The notes under the pieces are model-generated. The model did not search any database. It saw only the letters and a program-made list of their open reading frames with translations, and was not told the origin of the DNA. A stretch of 63,646 nucleotides of DNA, counting the filler, from Dugesia japonica (taxonomy: Eukaryota): NCBI GenBank assembly GCA_001938525.1. It is 6 parts of 6 records of this genome, joined end to end, with 100 filler letters (N's around TTAATTAATTAA, not from the genome) between each part and the next. Parts side by side here need not be neighbours in the genome. Positions count along the whole stretch, not along the records: positions 1 to 10,154 come from MQRL01580019.1; 5 more parts are not named here. One strand, written 5' to 3'. Positions within the stretch are counted from its first letter, which is position 1. Each line of letters begins with the position of its first letter. Of the stretch, positions 3,861-55,093 are shown in pieces. The position numbers and the translations under genes are program-made.

Positions 3861-4932
3861 TAATTGAGAAATAATAAGTAAAAACAAATAAAAGAAAGCA
3901 ATTTAAAATTATAAAAATAAATTTAATTAATTCCAAAAGCTCAAAATCAAACATATCAAATTTTAAAATTTAAATATATATAATACTGTTGGGGTGAAAC
4001 GACTAGTTGATGAAGAAACACATAGACGGAAGGTTAAAATTCCGAAATAACGCGGGAAAGTTAGAAAGGCACACTGACCAAAAATCCTAGCGAATTGGAT
4101 AAAAATCTATGGTACCTATGTTAAAAGAAAACCGAGAAAAGATGTACTACAGAAAGGAAATCGCAATCAAGATAAATTCGATGTCAATCGATACTGTTAA
4201 TTAAGAAAAATTATATTTATGTTGAAAAAACAGGAAAAAACTATTATGTTTAAAATAATTAATTAAGAAAAAATTATTAATTAATTCTACCAGAAATAAA
4301 TTGAAATTAGACAAAAATTCGTTTTTTACGAGATCCAGAGGAATCAGAGAAACTCGGTATAAGAAAATCTAAGAGGAAAATGTATTAGAGTAATGGAATT
4401 TTGCCATTTGAAAACCTTAGCATTATCCGGAGGACCCTCCAGGGATGTGAAAATTGGACCAAGAAGGGCCAAGAAAATAAATATAAAACAAAGAAATGAC
4501 AATCACATGTCACTCCAAAAATAGATACCAATAAGAGTTCTACAACTCTGTAAAAANNNNNNNNNNNNNNNNNNNNNNNNNNNNNNNNNNNNNNNNNNNN
4601 NNNNNNNNNNNNNNTTAAACTAAAAATAACCGACCAACAAGAACATAGTCGGGTTGCATCGGGAAATCCTATAAAAGGACATGAAAAAGTAGTCTAAAAA
4701 ACAGCAAAATTTAATAGAAACAAAACGTAAAAGTTCTGCTCTCAATTTTGAAAATTATTTTGGTGATTTCAGCTAAAACTACTCACAAATTTATTGGTAC
4801 GATCATCTAACTACAAACGAAAATATTTTGACAAAAAATTTAATTGTAGAATCACAGCATAGTTGCGTCAAAGTACACGGCAACACAAAAAAGAAGATAA
4901 CCGCAAATTAATAATTCTCATTTTCATCCAAC

Positions 4933-4987
4933 TCAGTCGTTTCTTCGAAGAATTCCTGTTGCAGTTGTGAAAATTATAACAGTAAGT
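4933..4987 (+). promoter_or_regulatory. Putative initiator (TCAGTC) and short leader exon ending in A, followed by a consensus splice donor GTAAGT (4982-4987)
   Basis: actcagtc at ~4931-4938; ...attataacA|GTAAGT. Function inferred. Confidence 0.45.
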
Positions 4988-5460
4988 AGACATGTTTATA
5001 ATTTTTTTTTGTCATATAAGTCGTATGTGTAGTGTTTGTGAACGATAATAAATGATTTCGATTATGAAAACAATTTTTCTTCTCTAAAATTTTGTTTTGT
5101 TTAAAAATGATTGTGGTTTTGCTTATAGAAGTTACAGGCTCTCTCCTCAGTCGGTATCCATGTTAAGCCAATGTCCATTCCGAACATCTGGCATCTCTCG
5201 TCACTTTCACCAACTAGGATGTGTGTAAAAGTCAAAGTTTACTCCTTTTAATGTCAGTTACCCGACCGCCGTAGGCTCGTATAATGTTATGCATTCATTT
5301 TACTGACACTCTCCATTGCTGAACAATTAATGAAAATACTCGAGTTACGATATTTGGTGTATAAAAAGGGCTCACCATTAGGATTGAAATGTTCAGGCAA
5401 CCGTGACTATGAAATCCTCAATGTTTATACTCAACTGTCACTAACTTAGCATCCAGGGCC

Positions 5461-5597
5461 ATTGCTATTATTATTCTTATTATCATTATTATGATTATTA
5501 TTAGTATTATTATTATNNNNNNNNNNNNNNNNNNNNNNNNNNNNNNNNNNNNNNNNNNNNNNNNNNNNNNNNNNNNNNNNNNNNNNNNNNNNNNNNN

Positions 5598-5629
<32 letters not shown>

Positions 5630-5730
5630 GCTATTATTATTCTTAGTATTATTATTATGATTAATTATTACTATTATTCTTAGTATTGGTATTTTTGCTA
5701 TCATTATTATTATTATCATGATTATTAGGA
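5461..5730. repeat. (ATT)n microsatellite with degenerate flanks, spanning an N gap
   Basis: Direct observation of the ttattattatt runs. Confidence 0.95.
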
Positions 5731-5918
5731 TTGACACTTTTTCTACTATTACCGTTATAGTTGTCATTAGCAATCTAATTGGTTTGAAAATGCATGTCTT
5801 CATTTTAATATCTTCCCTATCATTTCAAACTAACAAGCGTTTAACTACTACCAACCATTTGTCATAAGTCTGTTCAGGAGAACATAACATGAATTTATTA
5901 GTTACATATTTTTAGATT

Positions 5919-6122
5919 ATGCCGGCCGAGCTAAAGAAGACGTTACGTGTTATCTTGAATCAGTGGAAGGCCCGCCGATTGAAGCAATTAATCGGGCATT
6001 TGTTGTTCCCTCATCTAGTGGAACATCCTGACGAAACGGATTTGAGCTGTTTCGCCGAGATGTTCCCTTTTCCTTTAAGAGTGGACATCGACGAGGAATG
6101 CCAACCGATCTCGAATTTGTAA
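5919..6122 (+). CDS. Element-borne orphan ORF cassette 1 (67 aa)
   Basis: GC-richer ORF with ATG 4 nt after the acceptor tttttAG (5914-5915); AATAAA at ~6154. No recognisable family. Confidence 0.4.
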   Translation: MPAELKKTLRVILNQWKARRLKQLIGHLLFPHLVEHPDETDLSCFAEMFPFPLRVDIDEECQPISNL

Positions 6123-6242
6123 CATGTTCTTTGTTTCCTACCTTTTTTACTTTAAATAAAATGAATTCCTTTTTATTCATATTATATAAACATTCCGTAC
6201 TATGTAGTATAATTTGTTTCATAGGTTAATTAAATAACAGAA

Positions 6243-6600
6243 ATGAAATACGTTTGGGAAACGTTGCTTGACAGTCGATCTAATAGGGTAGTATTTCGTA
6301 GATACTGGAACCCTCACGATCGTAATGCGGGAGTCCTCACCGACTATTCAAATATGCCCGCTTTAGACGCAGAAAATGGACGAAAATGGGCTGCGGTTGA
6401 ACGTCAGGCTTTTTATGAATGGCGTGGTCCTGACCGTACTTGAGAGGTGCTCCTTCGCACCACCAGCATGGATCCATTAACTGGCGAGATTACCAGGGTG
6501 TGCCGGGATGCTCCGGCATTTGTGCTTATATCTGCTGCGCACCTACCACCTAATACTAGATTACGCGCAGATATAGGTAACACGCTATGCAGGCGGTGAA
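6243..6600 (+). pseudogene. Element-borne orphan ORF cassette 2 (internal TGA at 6441-6443)
   Basis: Acceptor aacAG (6239-6240) then AAATG; the frame stays coding-like past the stop (EVLLRTTSMDPLTGEITRVCRDAP...); AATAAA at ~6667. Confidence 0.4.
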
Positions 6601-6841
6601 TCTGAAAACAACGCACTATCTTCGGTTGGAGAAACTTAACAACTTTGTTGGTGGTCTATTAGTTTTAATAAATTATGGTTCATGTTGTTACTTCCTTGTC
6701 TTCATTTTATCTAAAGGATACTTTATGAATAAGAGTTATCAGTGCTACAAACCTGTTTGGTAAATTGATAAACTGCTACTTGATTTTCCCACATAAAAAT
6801 TTAATTCATTCCAATTTCATTGATAATTCATTTGGATTCAG

Positions 6842-7200
6842 TGCACTCTTCGTTAAATCACACCGTAGCACTTACCAAAAAGATGCGTGATCCTAGTGAT
6901 GACCAAGAGATGTCTTGGGAACTCTATCGACTTGCCAAATGTTGTTGGGAGGCTGATACGGCCAACGCAAAAAGCAAGGTCATCCGTTATAAGAAAAGGT
7001 GCTTGGCTTACAGAACGGAGGCAGAGAGCTCCCATACCCAAGAGCGGCTTTGGGAGGCCCAAGCCGAATCTTTCACAGATATCATCCGGTACCTCCATGA
7101 CCGAGAGAATAAACTGGATAATGACATTTTGGAGTTACGAAAAAGGATACCTCTTGAGCCACTAATAATAGACAAGGGCACCCAAACCTATCGACCCTGA
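6842..7200 (+). CDS. Element-borne orphan ORF cassette 3 (~120 aa, helical/coiled-coil); begins with TG directly after the acceptor
   Basis: ttcAG|TG CAC TCT... open to TGA at 7200; AATAAA at ~7217. Confidence 0.45.
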
Positions 7201-7342
7201 TCGATTTATGCCCATAAATAAATGTCTCCTTATTTGGTAGAGGCTTAGTTTTGTTTATCTCACATTAAGAACAGAATTTTCTTTTTAGTTAAATATTTAT
7301 AGTACATTAGTCTATAATCTAACTAAAAGTTCCTTATTTCAG

Positions 7343-7704
7343 TGCCGCGTATTCAATTACCTCGTAGTTTGCGACGTTGCCGTAGCCTAATCCAAAAGTT
7401 GTTGGTGGAACGTCATGTCAAAAGAAAAAATTAGCGGGCTCTCCTAAAACATCTGTCTCAACGAAATAAATTGATTAAGAAACTCGACATAATCGTCAAA
7501 AAGCAGAATGACTTAGCCGAACAGACAAGACAGTTGTTGCAACATAAAATAGATTTTTTGCAACATTATATCGATGATTAGTCACGACAATTAGCGAATG
7601 AGGCATGGATTCGTTAGGATAATCACGACGACGAGGTGGCCTTTAATTTTTTGGAAGACGACCCCACCCAGTAGTTAGACCGGGCTGCTATGGATTTCAT
7701 GTAA
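7343..7704 (+). pseudogene. Element-borne orphan ORF cassette 4 (coiled-coil, four in-frame TAG stops); begins with TG directly after the acceptor
   Basis: tttcAG|TG CCG CGT ATT...; single frame PRIQLPRSLRRCRSLIQKLLVERH...AAMDFM-TAA with no frameshift. Confidence 0.45.
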
Positions 7705-8231
7705 TATGATATAAAATATAAATTAGTTTTAACGATTTGTTAATTGATTTTGAATATAATGACGTAGGGAGAGTAAGGAACCCGAATTAAAGGTGTACGA
7801 GTGCGTACCTCAATTCAGTATCGGAGGTCAACCGCTCTGCACTGAATATCTAACTTAGGGGCGTTAGATTTAAATTCTTGAAGGGGTACCCCTAAGGGTC
7901 GTTTTTCCCCGGCGAGCGTCATTTCTGCTTCAGCAACTCATGTGGAACCCCAACAATACTGTTAATATAATTGTAAAATTAAATTATGAAAAGTGAAAAT
8001 CTATATGCATAATAATATGATAAATCTAAAATAGATTCATGATAATAAGGGTATATTGTTAGTAAGGAGTGTTTCTAAAAGAGTGTTTCTAAAATTTAAA
8101 ATAAATAAAGTTTAAACATCACAAATCATCGTAAATAATGGTTTAAAATATATTATGAACACTTTGAATAATTAAATTTAAATGAAATAATTAATTTGAA
8201 CATAAAATATTTTACACATGAGATACTTGTT

Positions 8232-10154: not shown

Positions 10155-10254
10155 NNNNNNNNNNNNNNNNNNNNNNNNNNNNNNNNNNNNNNNNNNNNTT
10201 AATTAATTAANNNNNNNNNNNNNNNNNNNNNNNNNNNNNNNNNNNNNNNNNNNN
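10155..10254. other. Artificial 100-bp scaffold spacer
   Basis: N44-TTAATTAATTAA-N44 (stops in all six frames). Confidence 0.97.
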
Positions 10255-21274: not shown

Positions 21275-21374
21275 NNNNNNNNNNNNNNNNNNNNNNNNNN
21301 NNNNNNNNNNNNNNNNNNTTAATTAATTAANNNNNNNNNNNNNNNNNNNNNNNNNNNNNNNNNNNNNNNNNNNN
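21275..21374. other. Artificial 100-bp scaffold spacer
   Basis: N44-TTAATTAATTAA-N44. Confidence 0.97.
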
Positions 21375-29751: not shown

Positions 29752-29851
29752 NNNNNNNNNNNNNNNNNNNNNNNNNNNNNNNNNNNNNNNNNNNNTTAAT
29801 TAATTAANNNNNNNNNNNNNNNNNNNNNNNNNNNNNNNNNNNNNNNNNNNN
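29752..29851. other. Artificial 100-bp scaffold spacer
   Basis: N44-TTAATTAATTAA-N44. Confidence 0.97.
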
Positions 29852-33855: not shown

Positions 33856-34401
33856 TTATTGAAACTTCAAAACTTGCAATAATTGAAATTGCGAAATTTA
33901 TTGATTATTTAGAATATCTTCNNNNNNNNNNNNNNNNNNNNNNNNNNNNNNNNNNNNNNNNNNNNNNNNNNATGACGTTTTTTTAATTTTCGACGATAGT
34001 CTTCTTTGGGGATTTGATTTAAAAGAAAACTGTCGTCGAACATTCATATTGCTAACACGAACTAAAAAAACGTCATTTTGATTTAAGCTTTTTAATTTAT
34101 TGAAACTTCAAAACTTGCAATAATTGAAATTGCGAAATTTATTGATTATTTAGAATATCTTCTTCAAAATCAAGTTTAGATTTATCAACACTACCTGATA
34201 ACGCAGTCTTATTTTGAATCTTGCTAGACATGATTTTTTTAAAAAAATGAATTTAAATAAATTTTTCTCCTCGAATAGAAGGCAAAATTTTTTGAATGGT
34301 AATCTTTTCCAGAATCAGGATTTCTAAAACAATTGTAAAAAGCATCTGGAAATTTTTGTTTTCTGATGTATTTTTCTTCTTCATAAAATATTTCACTGTA
34401 G

Positions 34402-34877
34402 AATCACAAATGATGGGCATGAAAAACAAAGGTATATACGTTTTAATGAGTGGATTGGACTATGAAAGAGTGATTTTATCAGCTGGTCCTATAGGTTTGA
34501 TGCAAGCAGCTTGTGATGTAGCGTTTGATTATGCCCAACATAGAAAAGCATTCGGACAGCCGATTGCAGAATTTCAATTAATGCAATCGAAAATGTCGGA
34601 TATGTATTTGAAACTAGTTACGTGTAGATCATATGTTTATAATGTTGCCAAATCTCTTGATAGAGGTGAACGGCAATCGAGAGATTGTTCTGGTGCAATA
34701 TTATTTTCAGCAGAATGCGCTACTAAGGTAGCTCTTGATGCTATTCAAATACTTGGTTATCATTACTGTTTGTATAATAAATTTGAAACTTTGTTTCTCA
34801 GGCGGAAACGGTTATATTAATGATTATCCCACAGGTCGCATCCTTCGTGACGCAAAATTATATGAAATAGGAGCTGG
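34402..34877 (+). CDS. IVD: Isovaleryl-CoA dehydrogenase, 3' exons (34402-34755; 34802 into gap)
   Basis: [28 protein letters not shown]...[22 protein letters not shown]...ALDAIQILG|[25 protein letters not shown]; 46-nt phase-1 intron GT...CTCAG (34756-34801); intact frame. Confidence 0.95.
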
Positions 34878-35747
34878 NNNNNNNNNNNNNNNNNNNNNNN
34901 NNNNNNNNNNNNNNNNNNNNNNNNNNNNNNNNNNNNNNNNNNNNNNNNNNNNNNNNNNNNNNNNNNNNNNNNNNNNNNNNNNNNNNNNNNNNNNNNNNNN
35001 NNNTATTTATAATAATTTTTTCCTCCTAGCATTTGGTTTAGGTGGAATTATTGGAATAATATAACAACGCATTTGGGATTTTGATATTTTTATGTGACTT
35101 CAAAATAAATCTTTTTTATTGGTTAGTTCATTCATTTAGAATTGAAATATCCTGCAAATCGTATTGGAATGTGTCGATAATTCTAGGTCGGTTGTGTAAG
35201 TAATAGAAGAGGTAAACTTGACACTTGTTTTTGAGAAAAAATATGGAATAATAATGAAAAAAATATATTTTACAATATATTTACAATATAATCACAAAAT
35301 TCAAAATATAATGCACCTCTTTTTCTATTATTTGGAGTATAATAATAATCCTTTTTAAATTTTAACTATTTACTCTATACAAAAAAGTTTATGTAAAGTT
35401 TTACATTATTGAATTAAGTTTCCACTCATTAATGATGAATTAAAATTATNNNNNNNNNNNNNNNNNNNNNNNNNNNNNNNNNNNNNNNNNNNNNNNNNNN
35501 NNNNNNNNNNNNNNNNNNNNNAAAAAAGCTGAATTAATTGTAAAACTTGTAAATTAACTGAATAATTAATTTAATTGTCTTAAAAGGTTAAATTAACATA
35601 TAGATTTAGAAATTTGTTTAATTTTGTAAAAAAAATGTAAACGAGTTTTTATTCATAATATAACACATAAAAATTGAAAATCCTATTTGTTTTTAAATTA
35701 AAGATTTATATAAACAAATCTCAAGAAAAAAAATTTTCATATATAAA

Positions 35748-38700
35748 ATGCTTACTTGTGATAACTGTAAAAAGGTTTTTAAAAGAAAAGCGATTTAAAT
35801 CAACTTATAAACAAATCGAAAAAATGTATTCAATTAATTAAAAAATAAAATGTTAAAAAAGAATTCATTTGCGATAATTGTAACAAAACATTTAAAGCTA
35901 AATCAAGTTATATTTCTCACAAGAAATTTTGTTTATTAAACTCATCATCATTAGTAAAAAGTGAAATTTGCAATAAAAGTTTTATTGATCAAAGATTTTA
36001 TGATTATCATTTAAAAAGTAAAGGACATTTATTAAAAGCAAGAAGAATTATGAATATAGAATTATTAGATAATGATGAAGAGTTTGAAGATTATATCAAA
36101 GAAAATAACATAATTAAAAGAAATATATTGTTAGGGAAAGCCCGTAAATACTACACACAGAACATACACATACAACAAGCAAACAACAGCNNNNNNNNNN
36201 NNNNNNNNNNNNNNNNNNNNNNNNNNNNNNNNNNNNNNNNNNNNNNNNNNNNNNNNNNNNNNNNNNNNNNNNNNNNNNNNNNNAGAATGAATTTAAGTAT
36301 GATACCGTCTATTACCAACAATAAAAATTTTAGTATTACAAATACATATGTACTTACAATTATTTTTAAAATAAGCAGAGTGGACACATTCCATTCAGAA
36401 CACTAACTAACTTATGTTTATTTATTTAATTTTTAAAAACCAACTATTAAAGAACTTTTTTGANNNNNNNAGTTGCTATAGTAGCAAAAATAATTAACAC
36501 TTACTATATACTACAATTAAATCTAGCATTATTTTACAAATACCACTTATTTTAAGAAGAAATATTGGAAAATTAAAATTTGTAAACTTTATAAAAAAAT
36601 TCAATATTGAAACTAACTTATGTTCTCCTATTTATAAAATTATCTGGCGGAACCCCTATTTGTGCTTCATGGAACCCTAAAGTTCTGTGGAACACAATCT
36701 GGGAAACGCTGATCTATATTAACGATTTTAAGATATAAGGTATACATATAATAGTAATATACAGGAAAATCGTGTGATTGTGTTATAATTTAAAATTAAT
36801 TCAAACTCACGCAATTGCTTATTTGCTTTGGTAACAATCCCCAAAGCATCTCAACAATATTAAGAAGTAAAGATTTAATTACTTTAAAACAAATAGTTTC
36901 TAATACAGATGCATCTCAAAAAATAGAAACTGTAAAAACAATTCCATCATTTGATATATTTGAAAAATCTGCAAAACATTATTTGGATTTGTTTGAAAAT
37001 TGTAAAATAAGAATAGGTGTATGCACTTATTTAAATAAAAGAAAAGAACAAACTCAAATTGATTTTAATAGTAGAACAGAAATAATTTTAAATAAAGAAG
37101 ATTTAGAAAGTAAAATNGAATTAATTTATAATGATTTGAGTAATGAAATGACAGAATATGAATGAAACGAAAGTGGATTAATTATTGAATCCATAGATTC
37201 CTTAGACATGTTCATTGGAGAATATGCTTCTGAATCAGAATTAAGGGGAACATGGATTGAATTACCATTCAAATCAAAAGTTTTATTTAATGAAAATTAT
37301 AATGATAGTAAATGTTTCTATCATGCAATAATAAATTCATTAAAATATAATAAACAAGGTTATAGTGAAATTGAAAATTTAATGAATACAAGTGAGTATG
37401 AACCAATTTCAATTAATGATGTAAAGAAATTTAATAATGATAATGAAAGAGAAAAGTAAATATATTTGAAATTGATGAAAGTAAACACATTAAACCAATT
37501 ATATTAAGTCATTATCATTGGTTACCAACAGATATCAATGAAATACATTAAACAAATTTATTTATTTATAATAAACATATATCTTGTTCAAATGTAAGTG
37601 TATTTGTAAATAAATCAAAAAATAAATCATTTCCATGTTTAAATTGTAGAATAGGATTTAGAACAAAGAAATGTTTAGATATTCATAAAATATTATGTTT
37701 AAATAATAATTCAACAATAAATATATTTCATGAAGACAAATATTTATCTTTCAACAAATATAATTTTAAAAATAAAGTTCCATTTATTATAAGTGCAGAT
37801 TTTGAAGGTTTTAATGATATAAATACTCGAGATAATTCAATTGAACAAAACTTTTTAGCATTTGGGATGTATATTTCAAGTAATTATGAAAATTTAAGAA
37901 AATCAGAATATATAGAATATTGTGGACATGATGCAGCACAAAAATTGGTAGATAAATTTATATCATTAGAAATTGAATTTAGAAAATTATTAAAAACAAT
38001 TATTCCAATATCAAAGATTCCAGAAAAACCAGAGAAATGTTATTGTTATTATTGTAATATACAAATTCAAGATTTAAATATAATTGTAGATCATGATCAT
38101 TATAATGGAAAATTTAGAGGAAGGTTATGTAATAGTTGTAATTTAAAAGCAAAATTTCATTTTGTTCCAATGTATTCTCATAATGGAAGTAAATATGATT
38201 TACTATTAATATTTACTAAACTTTTTCAATATGATGAAATTAAAAATAAAAAAACAAATTTTTTATGTAAAAATGATGAAGAATATATTTCTGTACAAAT
38301 AAGATGTATTAGAATTTTAGATAGTTTAAGATTATTACCAAGTCCATTAGAATTTTTAGGTAAGACTTTATCACCAGAAGAATGTATAAATTTAAATAAA
38401 TATAATCTCAAACCATTAAAAGGAATATTTCCATACAGAAAATGATAAATTTAATAAAATAGATAAATTATGAGGCAAACTACATTACCATCACTCGAAA
38501 AATTTTTTAATAAAATAAAACAAAAGAATATGACTGAAGAAGAAATAATCAAGCACAAATAAATTGGGAACAATTACAATGTAAAAAATATGAAAGATTA
38601 TACAATGAATTATATGAAAATAGATGTTATATTATTAGGAGATATTATATAAAATTTTATAGAAATAACAATTAAAAAATTCAATGTTGATCCATGTTAT

Positions 38701-39298: not shown

Positions 39299-39398
39299 NN
39301 NNNNNNNNNNNNNNNNNNNNNNNNNNNNNNNNNNNNNNNNNNTTAATTAATTAANNNNNNNNNNNNNNNNNNNNNNNNNNNNNNNNNNNNNNNNNNNN
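39299..39398. other. Artificial 100-bp scaffold spacer
   Basis: N44-TTAATTAATTAA-N44. Confidence 0.97.
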
Positions 39399-42490: not shown

Positions 42491-43216
42491 ATTTACCTAT
42501 TGATTATTCAGTTAATGGTTTAATCTGTTCATCACTTATTCCTTATAGTCAACCCTATAATTCACACTGAATATATAGTTTACAATTAATAACCGGTTAA
42601 TTATTCAAATATTTTCACCTTAATATAGAAAATTTCTGTGACAATGGACCTTCAAATCTGCTTTTTTAACCAATTAATCATCAACTAGTAAGTAGGTAGA
42701 TAGTGCAGCACTGGCACAGTGGTTTTAGTTGGGNNNNNNNNNNNNNNNNNNNNNNNNNNNNNNNNNNNNNNNNNNNNNNNNNNNNNNNNNNNNNNNNNNN
42801 NNNNNNNNNNNNNNNNNNNNNNNNNNNNNNNNNNNNNNNNNNNNNNNNNNNNNNTAATTTTTTCAAATTGACATTTTATAAGTAATAAAGAAACAAAATT
42901 GATAATTAATAACTTATATTTTAAGAAATCTTTTAACAGAAAAAGATTTGAAATAAATATAATTGCATTTTAATTTTAAATTAATTAATTATTATAAATT
43001 AAATTTTTTCAAATTGGTCTTCAATTTTTTCATTTGTAANNNNNNNNNNNNNNNNNNNNNNNNNNNNNNNNNNNNNNNNNNNNNNNNNNACACTGAATAT
43101 ATAGTTTACAATTAATAACCGGTTAATTATTCAAATATTTTCACCTTAATATAGAAAATTTCTGTGACAATGGACCTTCAAATCTGCTTTTTTAACCAAT
43201 TAATCATCAACTAGTA

Positions 43217-43634
43217 AGTAGGTAGATAGTGCAGCACTGGCACAGTGGTTTTAGTTGGGGTTTTCTATAATGCAATTAGTTGGGCGAAAAAATGGGGAAG
43301 GGGAGAGAGGGTGGGATACCCCTATTAAATGTGCTTCAATTTGTTTTGTTCTTCAATTATTTGTGCTTCAATTTGGTCCCTAATTTTTTCAAATTGACAT
43401 TTTATAAGTAATAAAGAAACAAAATTGATAATTAATAACTTATATTTTAAGAAATCTTTTAACAGAAAAAGATTTGAAATAAATATAATTGCATTTTAAT
43501 TTTAAATTAATTAATTATTATAAATTAAATTTTTTCAAATTGGTCTTCAATTTTTTCATTTGTAAACAACCTTTTTGGTTGTTTTTAAAACACCAGCTAA
43601 ATGTGTTGGTCCAGTATTGCACAATCTACCTACT
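43217..43634. mobile_element. Short non-autonomous element with AGTAGGTAGAT...ATCTACCTACT termini (Polinton-like AG...CT ends)
   Basis: AGTAGGTAGATAGTGCAGCACTGG at 43217 vs CCAGTATTGCACAATCTACCTACT ending at 43634; no clear TSD. Confidence 0.55.
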
Positions 43635-48752: not shown

Positions 48753-50049
48753 CAGTACTCGTAAAAAGTCTGCTCACCCCCTATAAAAAAAATACAACTT
48801 TTAATTTGGAATGAATATTTTCAGCAATGAAATTTAATAAATAAATAAATACATGATAGTCTTAATATTTAATAGGATGTCCTTTTGATTTTTTGACCAA
48901 TTCTAATCTTTTTGTAATCGAGAATACAATTTTTTCTGCATAGATTACGAGAAAGTTTGTACCATTCGCTTTTGGATTTCATTCCATAATTCTTCAGCAG
49001 AATTGTGTTTCATTGGTATTACTTTCCGTTTAAGTATACCCCAGATATTTTCTATGGGATTCAGACATCAATATTTTTATTTTTTAGGAAAGCCTGGGTA
49101 CTTTTGGCCTTATGTGGTGGAGCCAAATCACGTTGAAAAACGAATGCTGCTTTTAGAAATACTAAGCTTCCACCAACTATGTCTATATCATGAAGTATCT
49201 CTCGGCATTCATATTTCCATTGATTCTTTTCAGAAGTCCAACTCCATTACTGTTGAAGCAGCCCCAGACATGTNNNNNNNNNNNNNNNNNNNNNNNNNNN
49301 NNNNNNNNNNNNNNNNNNNNNNNNNNNAATGAGGTTCTTCGAATCAATAATTTACTTGATGACGAATATGTAAGAAAGATACACTCGTCGCTGAATACAA
49401 CATCTCTCCATTTATCTGCATCCCAACTACTGTAAGTCATGGGCCAAGAAAGTCTTCTGAGACGTTGATGCAATTTCAAATATGGCTTCTTAATTGCTGA
49501 ATAAAATCGAAAACCGTACTTGTTCAGAATTTTCTGAACAGTACTAACAGAAACATTTTGGACAGCACGTGTATTGTACGTATGGGTGATATTATGAACA
49601 GATAATAAGCGATTGGCTTTGCAAATGCGTCTTATAGCTCGTGAAGCTTGGGGTGAAACAATAGTTGGTCTGCCATTTTTCATCTTATCTCGCACGGATC
49701 CCATTTTTCGTTATTTCTTCCATAGATATTGCATTCCACATTTTGTCACAGTCTTGCTGTACTTTTCACGTAATTCACGCGCTATTTCTGTCCAAGACTT
49801 TCCATTATTCCGTAGTATAACGATGGCATTTCTTTGAAATTCTGTTAAATTTCTAGACATTATACTGCTCTAAAACCATGTCATTTTACACTATTTTACA
49901 TATATCAATTAAAAATAAATGATAAAAACTTACATTATTTAAATAATTAATTAATAACTAAATATTTAAACAATTCATTTAAACTAAATCGAAATGTTTA
50001 TTAAAAGTTGCATTTTTATAGGGGGTGAACAGACTTTTTGCGAGTACTG
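48753..50049 (-). mobile_element. Tc1-family transposon (~1.3 kb), degenerate transposase
   Basis: ~50-bp TIRs CAGTACTCG[T/C]AAAAAGTCTG[C/T]TCACCCCCTATAAAAA; GRPTIVS, KKPYL, WRDVVFSDEC, VWGCFNSNGVG, LNPIENIWG. Confidence 0.93.
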
Positions 50050-54993: not shown

Positions 54994-55093
54994 NNNNNNN
55001 NNNNNNNNNNNNNNNNNNNNNNNNNNNNNNNNNNNNNTTAATTAATTAANNNNNNNNNNNNNNNNNNNNNNNNNNNNNNNNNNNNNNNNNNNN
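54994..55093. other. Artificial 100-bp scaffold spacer
   Basis: N44-TTAATTAATTAA-N44. Confidence 0.97.

Follow-up and report, generated by a model that had tools for sequence, protein, structure and literature searches.

A probable solo LTR of Dugesia japonica with a candidate spliced array of four small genes

Results

Layout and ends of the element

The window, i.e. the whole stretch of Dugesia japonica DNA that was analysed (63,646 nucleotides, filler included), carries a 3,969-bp element at positions 3987–7955, in which a candidate leader exon is followed by four short ORF cassettes on the plus strand. The features are:

3983–3986, no strand: left target-site duplication ATAC
3987–7955, no strand: whole element, TG...CA, probable solo LTR (from its ends and duplication; repeat family for 5740–8020)
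3987–3995, plus strand: left 9-bp inverted end, partner of 7947–7955
4670–4678, plus strand: TATA-like box TATAAAAGG, an alternative, more upstream candidate promoter for the leader
4684–4981, plus strand: ATG-free stretch up to the donor (by ATG count), candidate leader exon with its start near 4700 or at the Inr-like motif
4933–4938, plus strand: Inr-like motif TCAGTC (putative function)
4982–4987, plus strand: predicted splice donor GTAAGT, preceded by a leader that ends in A
5466–5727, no strand: degenerate (ATT)n microsatellite that includes an N gap, in the predicted first intron
5914–6160, plus strand: cassette 1; acceptor AG 5914–5915, ORF 5919–6122 (67 aa), AATAAA 6155
6016–6070, no strand: family-conserved island in cassette 1, also a strong hairpin (depth 2,500–3,000 versus about 90 in the spacers)
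6239–6672, plus strand: cassette 2; acceptor 6239–6240, ORF 6243–6443 (66 aa), AATAAA 6667
6840–7222, plus strand: cassette 3; acceptor 6840–6841, AG/TG, ORF to 7200 (119 aa with a split ATG), AATAAA 7217
7341–7722, plus strand: cassette 4; acceptor 7341–7342, AG/TG, 119-codon frame to 7704
7742–7955, no strand: terminal region and right end, family-conserved (depth 1,200–12,700)
7956–7959, no strand: right target-site duplication ATAC

The element begins with TGTTGGGG at 3987, its last letters are CCCCAACA, ending at 7955, and ATAC stands on either side, which confirms the TG...CA termini and the 4-bp duplication of the first-pass annotation. The inverted match of the two ends is exact over 9 bp, and 17 of their first 40 nt agree. 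The flanks contain no PBS- or PPT-like run (purine runs do not exceed 4). Neither a second copy or related piece of the element nor a tRNA gene was found elsewhere in the window, and no related locus was found in the viral or metagenome contigs scanned. N gaps occupy 4557–4614 and 5517–5597. A decayed Gypsy region at about 11–15 kb was considered as the internal part of this LTR and rejected: it lies 3 kb off, and the duplication closes the element.

The repeat family was compared over 5740–8020, i.e. the right part and right end of the element. This stretch is matched by 2,020 contigs from one run (X3), which cover 30 of 30 bins and portray an abundant and diverged family; four of them rejoin the element at 7934–7937 with a short side of 21–24 letters. 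Conservation is greater in the cassettes than between them: the median summed depth is 331 in the 14 cassette bins versus 88 in the 8 spacer bins (p = 0.005, with 4 mixed and 4 terminal bins set aside), a contrast that is confounded with GC and in which contig depth does not equal copy number. The element thus combines TG...CA ends and a short inverted match with a 4-bp duplication and a dispersed repeat with a common end, as a solo LTR does, and is likely an old solo LTR of an abundant retrotransposon family, the term LTR being derived from ends, duplication and repeat abundance.

Candidate leader and cassettes

The donor at 4982 is the sole GTRAG(T/A) on the plus strand of the element. Both this donor, placed after a leader ending in A, and the Inr-like TCAGTC at 4933 are present as first annotated. 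The 298 nucleotides of 4684–4981 contain no ATG where 3.6–4.4 are expected (P = 0.008) and form the longest ATG-free stretch on the plus strand of the element; outside the element, 3 of 335 tiles are ATG-free. The minus strand of the element has an ATG-free gap of 384 nt, so such gaps are not unique to the leader strand.

Joined to any of the four cassettes, the leader's final A yields an in-frame start with A at −3. The layout of four acceptor–ORF–stop cassettes, of which the first three are followed by AATAAA (32, 67 and 16 nt past their stops), stands, although internal stops in cassettes 2 and 4 had been missed. Cassettes 1 and 2 have their own ATGs 3 nt (5919) and 2 nt (6243) past the acceptor, not 3–4 nt as first given. 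In cassettes 3 and 4 the A/TG is in frame, as had been proposed, but cassette 3 also has an in-frame ATG of its own at codon 15, so that the split ATG is needed by cassette 4 only. The spacers between cassettes are 118–242 nt long and contain AATAAA followed by an acceptor.

In other copies the ORF of cassette 1 closes at codon 61. Cassette 2 has one internal stop after 66 codons, followed by 51 further open codons to 6599, and this second part has an ATG of its own at 6468 behind a weak AG at 6465–6466. The frame of cassette 4 is interrupted after 30 codons and contains four TAG stops in all, with an in-frame ATG only in its last four codons; TATAAA variants lie past its end at 7710 and 7717, and there is no AATAAA. 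None of the six contigs that span the second of these four stops has it, which makes this break, at least, private to this copy. With cassettes 2 and 4 broken, this copy is decayed and can encode no more than two or three complete proteins; the earlier claim of four proteins, set against five internal stops in these two cassettes, is not borne out for it.

Taken singly, the signals are modest. The acceptors rank 20–26 among 298 AGs by a simple score, an acceptor 0–5 nt ahead of an ATG is expected by chance with P = 0.094 and 0.100, and an AATAAA at most 80 nt past a stop with P = 0.092, 0.074 and 0.080; an in-frame acceptor/TG at a cassette edge is rarer (P = 0.005 and 0.012). The complete unit of acceptor, start, at least 60 codons and AATAAA occurs at two independent places in the element (four rows, two of them at 6896 and nested in cassette 3) and nowhere on its minus strand or in the remaining 115,502 strand-bases of the window, and this row count was matched in none of 3000 local shuffles, by criteria chosen after the sequence had been viewed. 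The architecture of the array is beyond chance, on the plus strand only.

Predicted proteins

Cassettes 3 and 4 contain leucine-zipper-like heptads and are predicted to encode helical, zipper-like, non-membrane proteins. In cassette 3, F-L-L-L heptads make up the C-terminal part (about 7072–7137), and the highest depth peak of run X3 (16,000 at 7049–7125) falls on them. Cassette 4 has a basic N-terminal part, a heptad middle and an acidic end. A hydrophobic segment is absent from every cassette (maximal 19-residue hydropathy below 1). The single-sequence model of cassette 3 is helical (pLDDT 65) and gave no Foldseek match at E ≤ 0.001; that of cassette 2 has three strands and a helix (pLDDT 63), and its best structural Z of 5.6 is not meaningful.

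The proteins of the four cassettes are orphans: the searches gave neither a homologue nor a known fold for a single one. Searches among proteins of 64–207 aa and a further search gave no convincing homologue of cassette 3, and there was none of cassette 1 among proteins of 36–118 aa. P0005 (E = 7e-4) was rejected as a homologue of cassette 3, being a summed match to a bacterial repeat protein. Pfam contains no match for the cassettes and no transposase, PHROGs returned one weak row only, and a PDB sequence search with the cassette 2 read-through alone had no match. The ESM Atlas contains no homologue, with a TSC-22 zipper cluster at 0.85 as a lead only. In Rfam, the single row is a sub-threshold miRNA hairpin.

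RNA and sequence variation

Three RNA runs, of which 6–25% each was scanned, contain 2, 86 and 7 reads on 5740–8020. All 95 fit partially, none is 99% alike, and they come from distant copies; they fall on cassettes 1, 3 and 4 as well as the terminal region, with essentially none on the spacers. No splice joint or acceptor-anchored start was seen among these partial reads within 5740–8020, a stretch downstream of the leader and its donor. Among the 20 single-site differences listed inside cassettes (in 40 of 293 rows), 2 are synonymous, 16 are non-synonymous and 2 change a stop. The mostly non-synonymous differences among those listed fit decay of this copy, with no sign of purifying selection.

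Discussion

A proposed unit of one leader and many terminal exons

The element is probably a solo LTR that carries a spliced array of accessory genes, in which a shared ATG-free leader would be joined to one of four acceptors. One promoter could then express all four cassettes, and each messenger would likely terminate at a poly(A) site of its own. The last A of the leader would complete the ATG of cassettes 3 and 4, so that cassette 4 might be translatable from spliced RNA only. The proteins of cassettes 3 and 4, predicted to be helical, zipper-like and non-membrane, would most likely act in regulation, as accessory factors for activation or counter-silencing, and not as envelope proteins. 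The original proposal of one promoter with alternative choice of 3′ exons is partly supported: the frames, the ATG-free leader and the separate stops speak for it, while junction reads were not seen and four whole proteins are not encoded by this copy. Among the readings considered, the one-leader model gives the best fit to the sequence.

The array may lie antisense within the U3 of an oppositely oriented LTR, or in sense within a very long R/U5. We lean slightly towards the antisense placement, because a full-length genomic RNA that contained the donor, all four acceptors and the three poly(A) signals would be damaged; TATAAA at 5000–4995 and AATAAA at 4795–4790 on the minus strand, followed by a T-rich stretch, are counted in its favour.

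It is unlikely, though the strongest of the rival readings, that the cassettes of this repeat represent fragments of captured genes, decayed remnants or structured RNA or DNA elements and are not expressed as four proteins. The five internal stops in two cassettes, the mostly non-synonymous differences among those listed, the absence of homologues and the very few RNA reads all agree with such an origin, as do alternative open frames of 80–98 codons in the same GC-rich cassettes and the hairpin on the cassette 1 island, which is about equally strong on both strands (z of about −3.6 on plus and −3.5 on minus). However, acceptor, start, stop and AATAAA stand at the cassette edges on a single strand, the cassette 3 island has a weak fold (−8.5 kcal/mol) but a clean heptad, and GLT2 of another planarian shows a like layout by eye (see below).

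Less probable still is an operon-like reading, in which spliced-leader (SL) trans-splicing, or else read-through and reinitiation, would resolve a polycistronic unit and the donor at 4982 would be incidental. Short spacers with AATAAA and then an acceptor, such as those seen here, resemble trans-spliced operons. Flatworm SLs end in ATG (PMC7653826, in the part consulted), cassette 1 is in frame with such a leader, and the GLT2 probe spans a spacer. An ATG-ending leader is, however, in frame with one of the four cassettes, and gives 1, 4 and 15 codons at cassettes 2, 3 and 4, where a single A gives 67, 119 and 30.

It is very improbable that the element carries an ordinary multi-exon gene with the cassettes as its internal exons. 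There are GT motifs at the ends of cassettes 1, 2 and 4, and a phase-1 donor-like site at 6577 in the tail of cassette 2 would join cassette 3 in frame. Against this, the GT sites at the cassette ends are in phase 2 and the frames beyond close within 16 codons, cassette 3 lacks a donor close to its end and is followed by AATAAA 16 nt past its stop, and cassette 1 of other copies closes before its GT; only one cassette-to-cassette join is in frame, and every cassette has its own stop. Least probable of all, even if the gene array may be real in it, is a non-autonomous, Ginger-like DNA transposon with TGT ends, which shares the TGT termini and 4-bp duplication (PMC2836005, in part) and would agree with the lack of an adjoining internal retroelement region, but has TIRs of 40–270 bp versus 9 bp here and targets CCGG/CCGT or RTATAY, not ATAC (same source), and for which no transposase was found in Pfam.

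Under the one-leader model, a four-gene spliced array in an LTR would survive solo-LTR formation and be amplified with each insertion. LTRs count as non-coding regions with a control function, and a solo LTR as no more than a promoter. Split start codons would hide such an array from ORF finders. It would raise the question of how a retroelement retains introns and poly(A) sites in its own repeat, and it offers testable protein candidates for the action of de-repressed transposons in regenerating animals with somatic PIWI silencing.

Comparison with known systems

Split start codons and accessory ORFs are already known; a spliced multi-ORF array of four genes inside an LTR was not found in the literature searched, though ORFs of GLT or Burro LTRs may be covered by repeat-database reports and supplements outside that search. 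Known retroviral cases of accessory genes in U3, or expressed antisense from the LTR, are MMTV sag, HIV nef, foamy bel and HTLV-1 HBZ, the last a zipper protein. These are one gene each, with no four-gene spliced array and no sequence relation to the element.

The adenovirus major late unit likewise has one promoter, a common leader and alternative acceptors and poly(A) sites, but is a 28-kb DNA-virus unit with known genes and an analogy only (PMC4346872, in part). In errantiviruses of the springer subclade, the env start codon is completed by a splice; there it is AU/G of one internal gene, here A/TG of two of four small genes in a terminal repeat (bioRxiv 10.1101/2023.08.03.551782, in part). 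The MDG1/412 group of Gypsy elements has small accessory ORFs (sORF1, sORF2) close to the 5′ end and an early poly(A) site that gives a short transcript, but the sections consulted describe no splicing, and sORF2 is a membrane protein, unlike the cassettes with their lack of a hydrophobic segment (PMC11952523).

Burro/GYPSM1, giant Gypsy elements likewise abundant in an AT-rich animal genome, have accessory ORFs and multi-kb LTRs, the latter implied by a total of more than 30 kb versus an internal part of up to 25 kb (PMC6431247, in part). Their extra coding consists of a huge polyprotein of about 4,900 aa and internal ORFs, with no ORF array in the LTR described in section 7 of that paper. 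No support was found for a link between Burro and the element. As to a planarian host, the DNA looks like that of an AT-rich invertebrate, and a host IVD exon reaches 72% with its best match and 56–68% with named animals.

Closer in layout are GLT and GLT2 of Schmidtea mediterranea, with probes in Table S1 and copies annotated from Repbase (PMC8532177, in part). By eye, in the first 400 letters (supplementary file 1 of PMC8532177), the reverse strand of the GLT2 probe has an AT-rich spacer, TTTAG/TG and 78 open codons to the probe end; this long, heptad-rich frame directly after an acceptor-like TTTAG resembles the AG/TG cassettes of the element. In the GLT probe, read likewise by eye over its first 400 letters, a short AT-rich spacer separates two open frames, and the open frames of these probes are GC-rich, as in the element. 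Also by eye, cassette 3 and the GLT2 frame have E-x-[YF]-R and [RK]-[RK]-C, equally spaced ahead of the coiled coil, a lead only. Four qPCR primers do not match the element, differing from it at 7–8 of 20 positions. The passages of PMC8532177 drawn on here describe neither the ORFs and splicing of GLT2 nor its LTR structure. Since the GLT2 probe has a like order of spacer, AG/TG and open frame, this likeness, read by eye, suggests GLT-type repeats rather than Burro.

Tentatively, this family and planarian GLT/GLT2 may form a class of giant LTRs with an adenovirus-style multi-gene spliced unit inside the repeat, an idea we hold as possible rather than probable. If it is true, solo LTRs in their hundreds to thousands would each be a self-contained cassette for several zipper-type regulatory proteins, with translation tied to splicing via split start codons. 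RNAi of smedwi-2 de-represses GLT2 RNA in neurons (PMC8532177, in part), and this RNA of piwi-depleted planarian neurons would then be protein-coding.

The element and its setting

The window consists of AT-rich animal DNA in a gapped assembly, with ~17–34% GC per kb outside the element at 3987–7955. The element, a TG...CA repeat, starts with TGTTGGGG at 3987, ends with CCCCAACA at 7955, is flanked on both sides by ATAC and has a terminal inverted match of 9 bp; its flanks hold no PBS- or PPT-like runs. On balance we take it for a solo LTR carrying a predicted unit of one leader and four terminal exons. A Ginger identity was rejected on inverted-repeat length and target, by the criteria of PMC2836005.

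N44-TTAATTAATTAA-N44 linkers occupy 10155–10254, 21275–21374, 29752–29851, 39299–39398 and 54994–55093; these are artificial joins, so contiguity across them is not assured. Elsewhere the window contains:

34400–34880, + strand: exons of the host isovaleryl-CoA dehydrogenase, separated by a predicted ~45-nt intron
35849–36403, + strand: C2H2 zinc-finger ORF
37552–38445, + strand: 297-aa ORF with an endonuclease VII domain
49186–49710, − strand: Tc1/Tc3-type transposase, N-terminal piece

The best match of the dehydrogenase exon has 72% identity, and named invertebrate matches have 56–68%, which indicates an invertebrate host, plausibly a planarian, whose close relatives are absent from the collection searched. 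The zinc-finger and endonuclease VII ORFs may be what is left of a DNA element of virus-like type. A 526-bp tandem duplication at 42564–43565 (100% identity, across N gaps) is perhaps an assembly artefact.

Block anatomy and predicted leader

The first-pass annotation had described one leader with a donor at 4982, four ORF blocks behind acceptor AGs ending at 5915, 6240, 6841 and 7342, their stops and three AATAAA signals. All of these lie where it placed them, as do the starts, with one exception: block 2 has its ATG 2 nt past its AG. The observation is confirmed and its interpretation partly supported. The blocks are present, but one internal stop interrupts block 2 and four interrupt block 4, which the first-pass annotation had overlooked. 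A start codon split by the splice, proposed for blocks 3 and 4, agrees with the in-frame AG|TG of both, but block 3 also offers an ATG of its own at codon 15, likewise overlooked. In block 4 the first in-frame ATG comes only within the last four codons, which makes this block the one dependent on the split start. At 6465–6599 (+), a weak AG precedes C-ATG and a run of 43 codons; this may be a fifth cassette instead of block 2's broken tail. The predicted first intron holds a GC-richer block (5100–5450) with short open frames and a second TATAAAAAGG at 5360.

By criteria set post hoc, after the sequence had been seen, and with the ORFs given, the chance probabilities are P=0.094 and 0.100 for an acceptor directly 5′ of an ATG, P=0.005 and 0.012 for an in-frame acceptor|TG at a block edge, and P=0.07–0.09, in each of three spacers, for an AATAAA within 80 nt 3′ of the stop. 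The complete unit, an acceptor and start with 60 or more codons and AATAAA, occurs at two independent places on the + strand of the element, and nowhere on its − strand or in the 115,502 strand-bases of the remaining window. By a simple score the four acceptors rank only 20–26 among 298 AGs. Each of the four predicted starts carries A at −3.

On the element's + strand, the longest ATG-free stretch starts just 3′ of TATAAAAGG at 4670 and extends across the donor (P=0.008; outside the element, 3 of 335 tiles are ATG-free); the − strand has a longer gap still. From the extent of the + strand stretch, the leader may be ~280 nt long rather than the 49 nt counted from the Inr-like TCAGTC at 4933.

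A trans-spliced leader of the flatworm type, which ends in ATG according to PMC7653826, would suit block 1 only and is an improbable supplier of the blocks' starts. Splicing of the blocks to each other as one multi-exon gene, with only one in-frame join, is less probable still. Under the preferred one-leader reading, a genomic RNA begun at the leader would have to remain unspliced and read past three poly(A) signals, a problem for replication. The − strand carries TATAAA (5000–4995), AATAAA (4795–4790) and a T-rich tail, which allow a putative arrangement, to which we lean slightly, where the LTR has the opposite orientation and U3 holds the array in antisense.

A diverged, probably transcribed family

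Contigs of sequence run X3 (kind not on record, probably DNA) were aligned to 5740–8020, a stretch downstream of the leader and left end. The 2,020 aligned contigs cover all 30 bins; 154 are at least 99% alike, 269 are at 95–99%, 819 at 90–95% and 778 below 90%. Depth, which does not equal copy number in such contigs, is 5–45 for the eight longest pieces among those listed, sums to ~60–150 in spacers and peaks at ~3,000 on the block 1 island, 16,000 on the block 3 heptads and 12,700 in the terminal region. This pattern indicates an abundant, diverged family whose distant members retain islands of blocks 1 and 3 and the terminal region. Across 14 cassette bins the median depth is 331, against 88 across 8 spacer bins (p=0.005, leaving aside 4 mixed and 4 terminal bins); GC content confounds this difference. 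At 7934–7937 four contigs join up with the window again, their short side being 21–24 letters long, as would fit a right end common to the family.

We examined 40 of 293 difference rows; the 20 in cassettes (2 synonymous, 16 non-synonymous, 2 stop-affecting) mark the window copy as decayed and give no evidence of selection. All 6 X3 contigs covering block 4's second stop lack it, and all 5 covering contigs close block 1 at codon 61.

From three RNA runs labelled as the same species came 2, 86 and 7 reads on 5740–8020 (6%, 25% and 25% of each run read). These fall on blocks 1, 3 and 4 and in the terminal region; every one matches over part of its length and stays below 99% likeness. Distant family members seem to be transcribed. 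Neither splice joints nor start pile-ups occur among these reads, on a stretch that begins downstream of the leader.

Searches of sequence, Pfam, PHROGs, PDB, ESM Atlas and Foldseek, with coverage varying by block, returned no homologue, family or fold for any block, and scans of viral and metagenome contigs gave no related locus. No hydrophobic segment occurs in blocks 1–4. F-L-L-L heptads are present in block 3, whose model is helical (pLDDT 65), while block 4 combines a basic N-part with five heptad positions and an acidic end. This combination of heptads, helical model and charge pattern suggests that both may be zipper-type regulators. The conserved block 1 island (6016–6070) forms a long, strong hairpin on both strands (z about −3.6 on the + strand), so its conservation may be structural.

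Comparison with known systems

Genes located in or derived from retroviral LTRs include sag, nef, bel and HBZ. A multi-gene spliced array inside an LTR was not found in the literature searched, a scope without Repbase Reports and Grohme 2018. Membership in Burro, raised in the first-pass annotation, finds no pointer in comparison with section 7 of PMC6431247.

The best lead to the family is GLT/GLT2 of S. mediterranea, whose FISH probes (PMC8532177 supplement) we read by eye over the first 400 letters of each. In the GLT2 probe, read on the reverse strand, an open frame ends and an AT-rich spacer of ~85 nt follows, whose last letters are TTTAG; TG and 78 open codons then continue as far as the probe reaches, the first own ATG lying 31 codons in. 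To the eye, this resembles the element's order of AT-rich spacer, AG|TG and open frame. The GLT probe, likewise by eye, has two open frames flanking a short AT-rich spacer; the second frame contains an ATG of its own, and no AG stands immediately before it. The four published GLT/GLT2 primers have no match in the element. GLT2 RNA shows neuronal enrichment after smedwi-2 RNAi (PMC8532177).

In bioRxiv 10.1101/2023.08.03.551782, the start codon of springer-subclade env is completed by splicing, as predicted for the split start of blocks 3 and 4. Spliced ORF3s are a typical feature of LTR elements, according to PMC5408684. MDG1-group elements (PMC11952523) have small accessory ORFs and an early poly(A) site; these ORFs are unspliced, unlike the element's predicted spliced array. 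The element shares its predicted design, a common leader with many poly(A) sites, with the adenovirus major late unit (PMC4346872).
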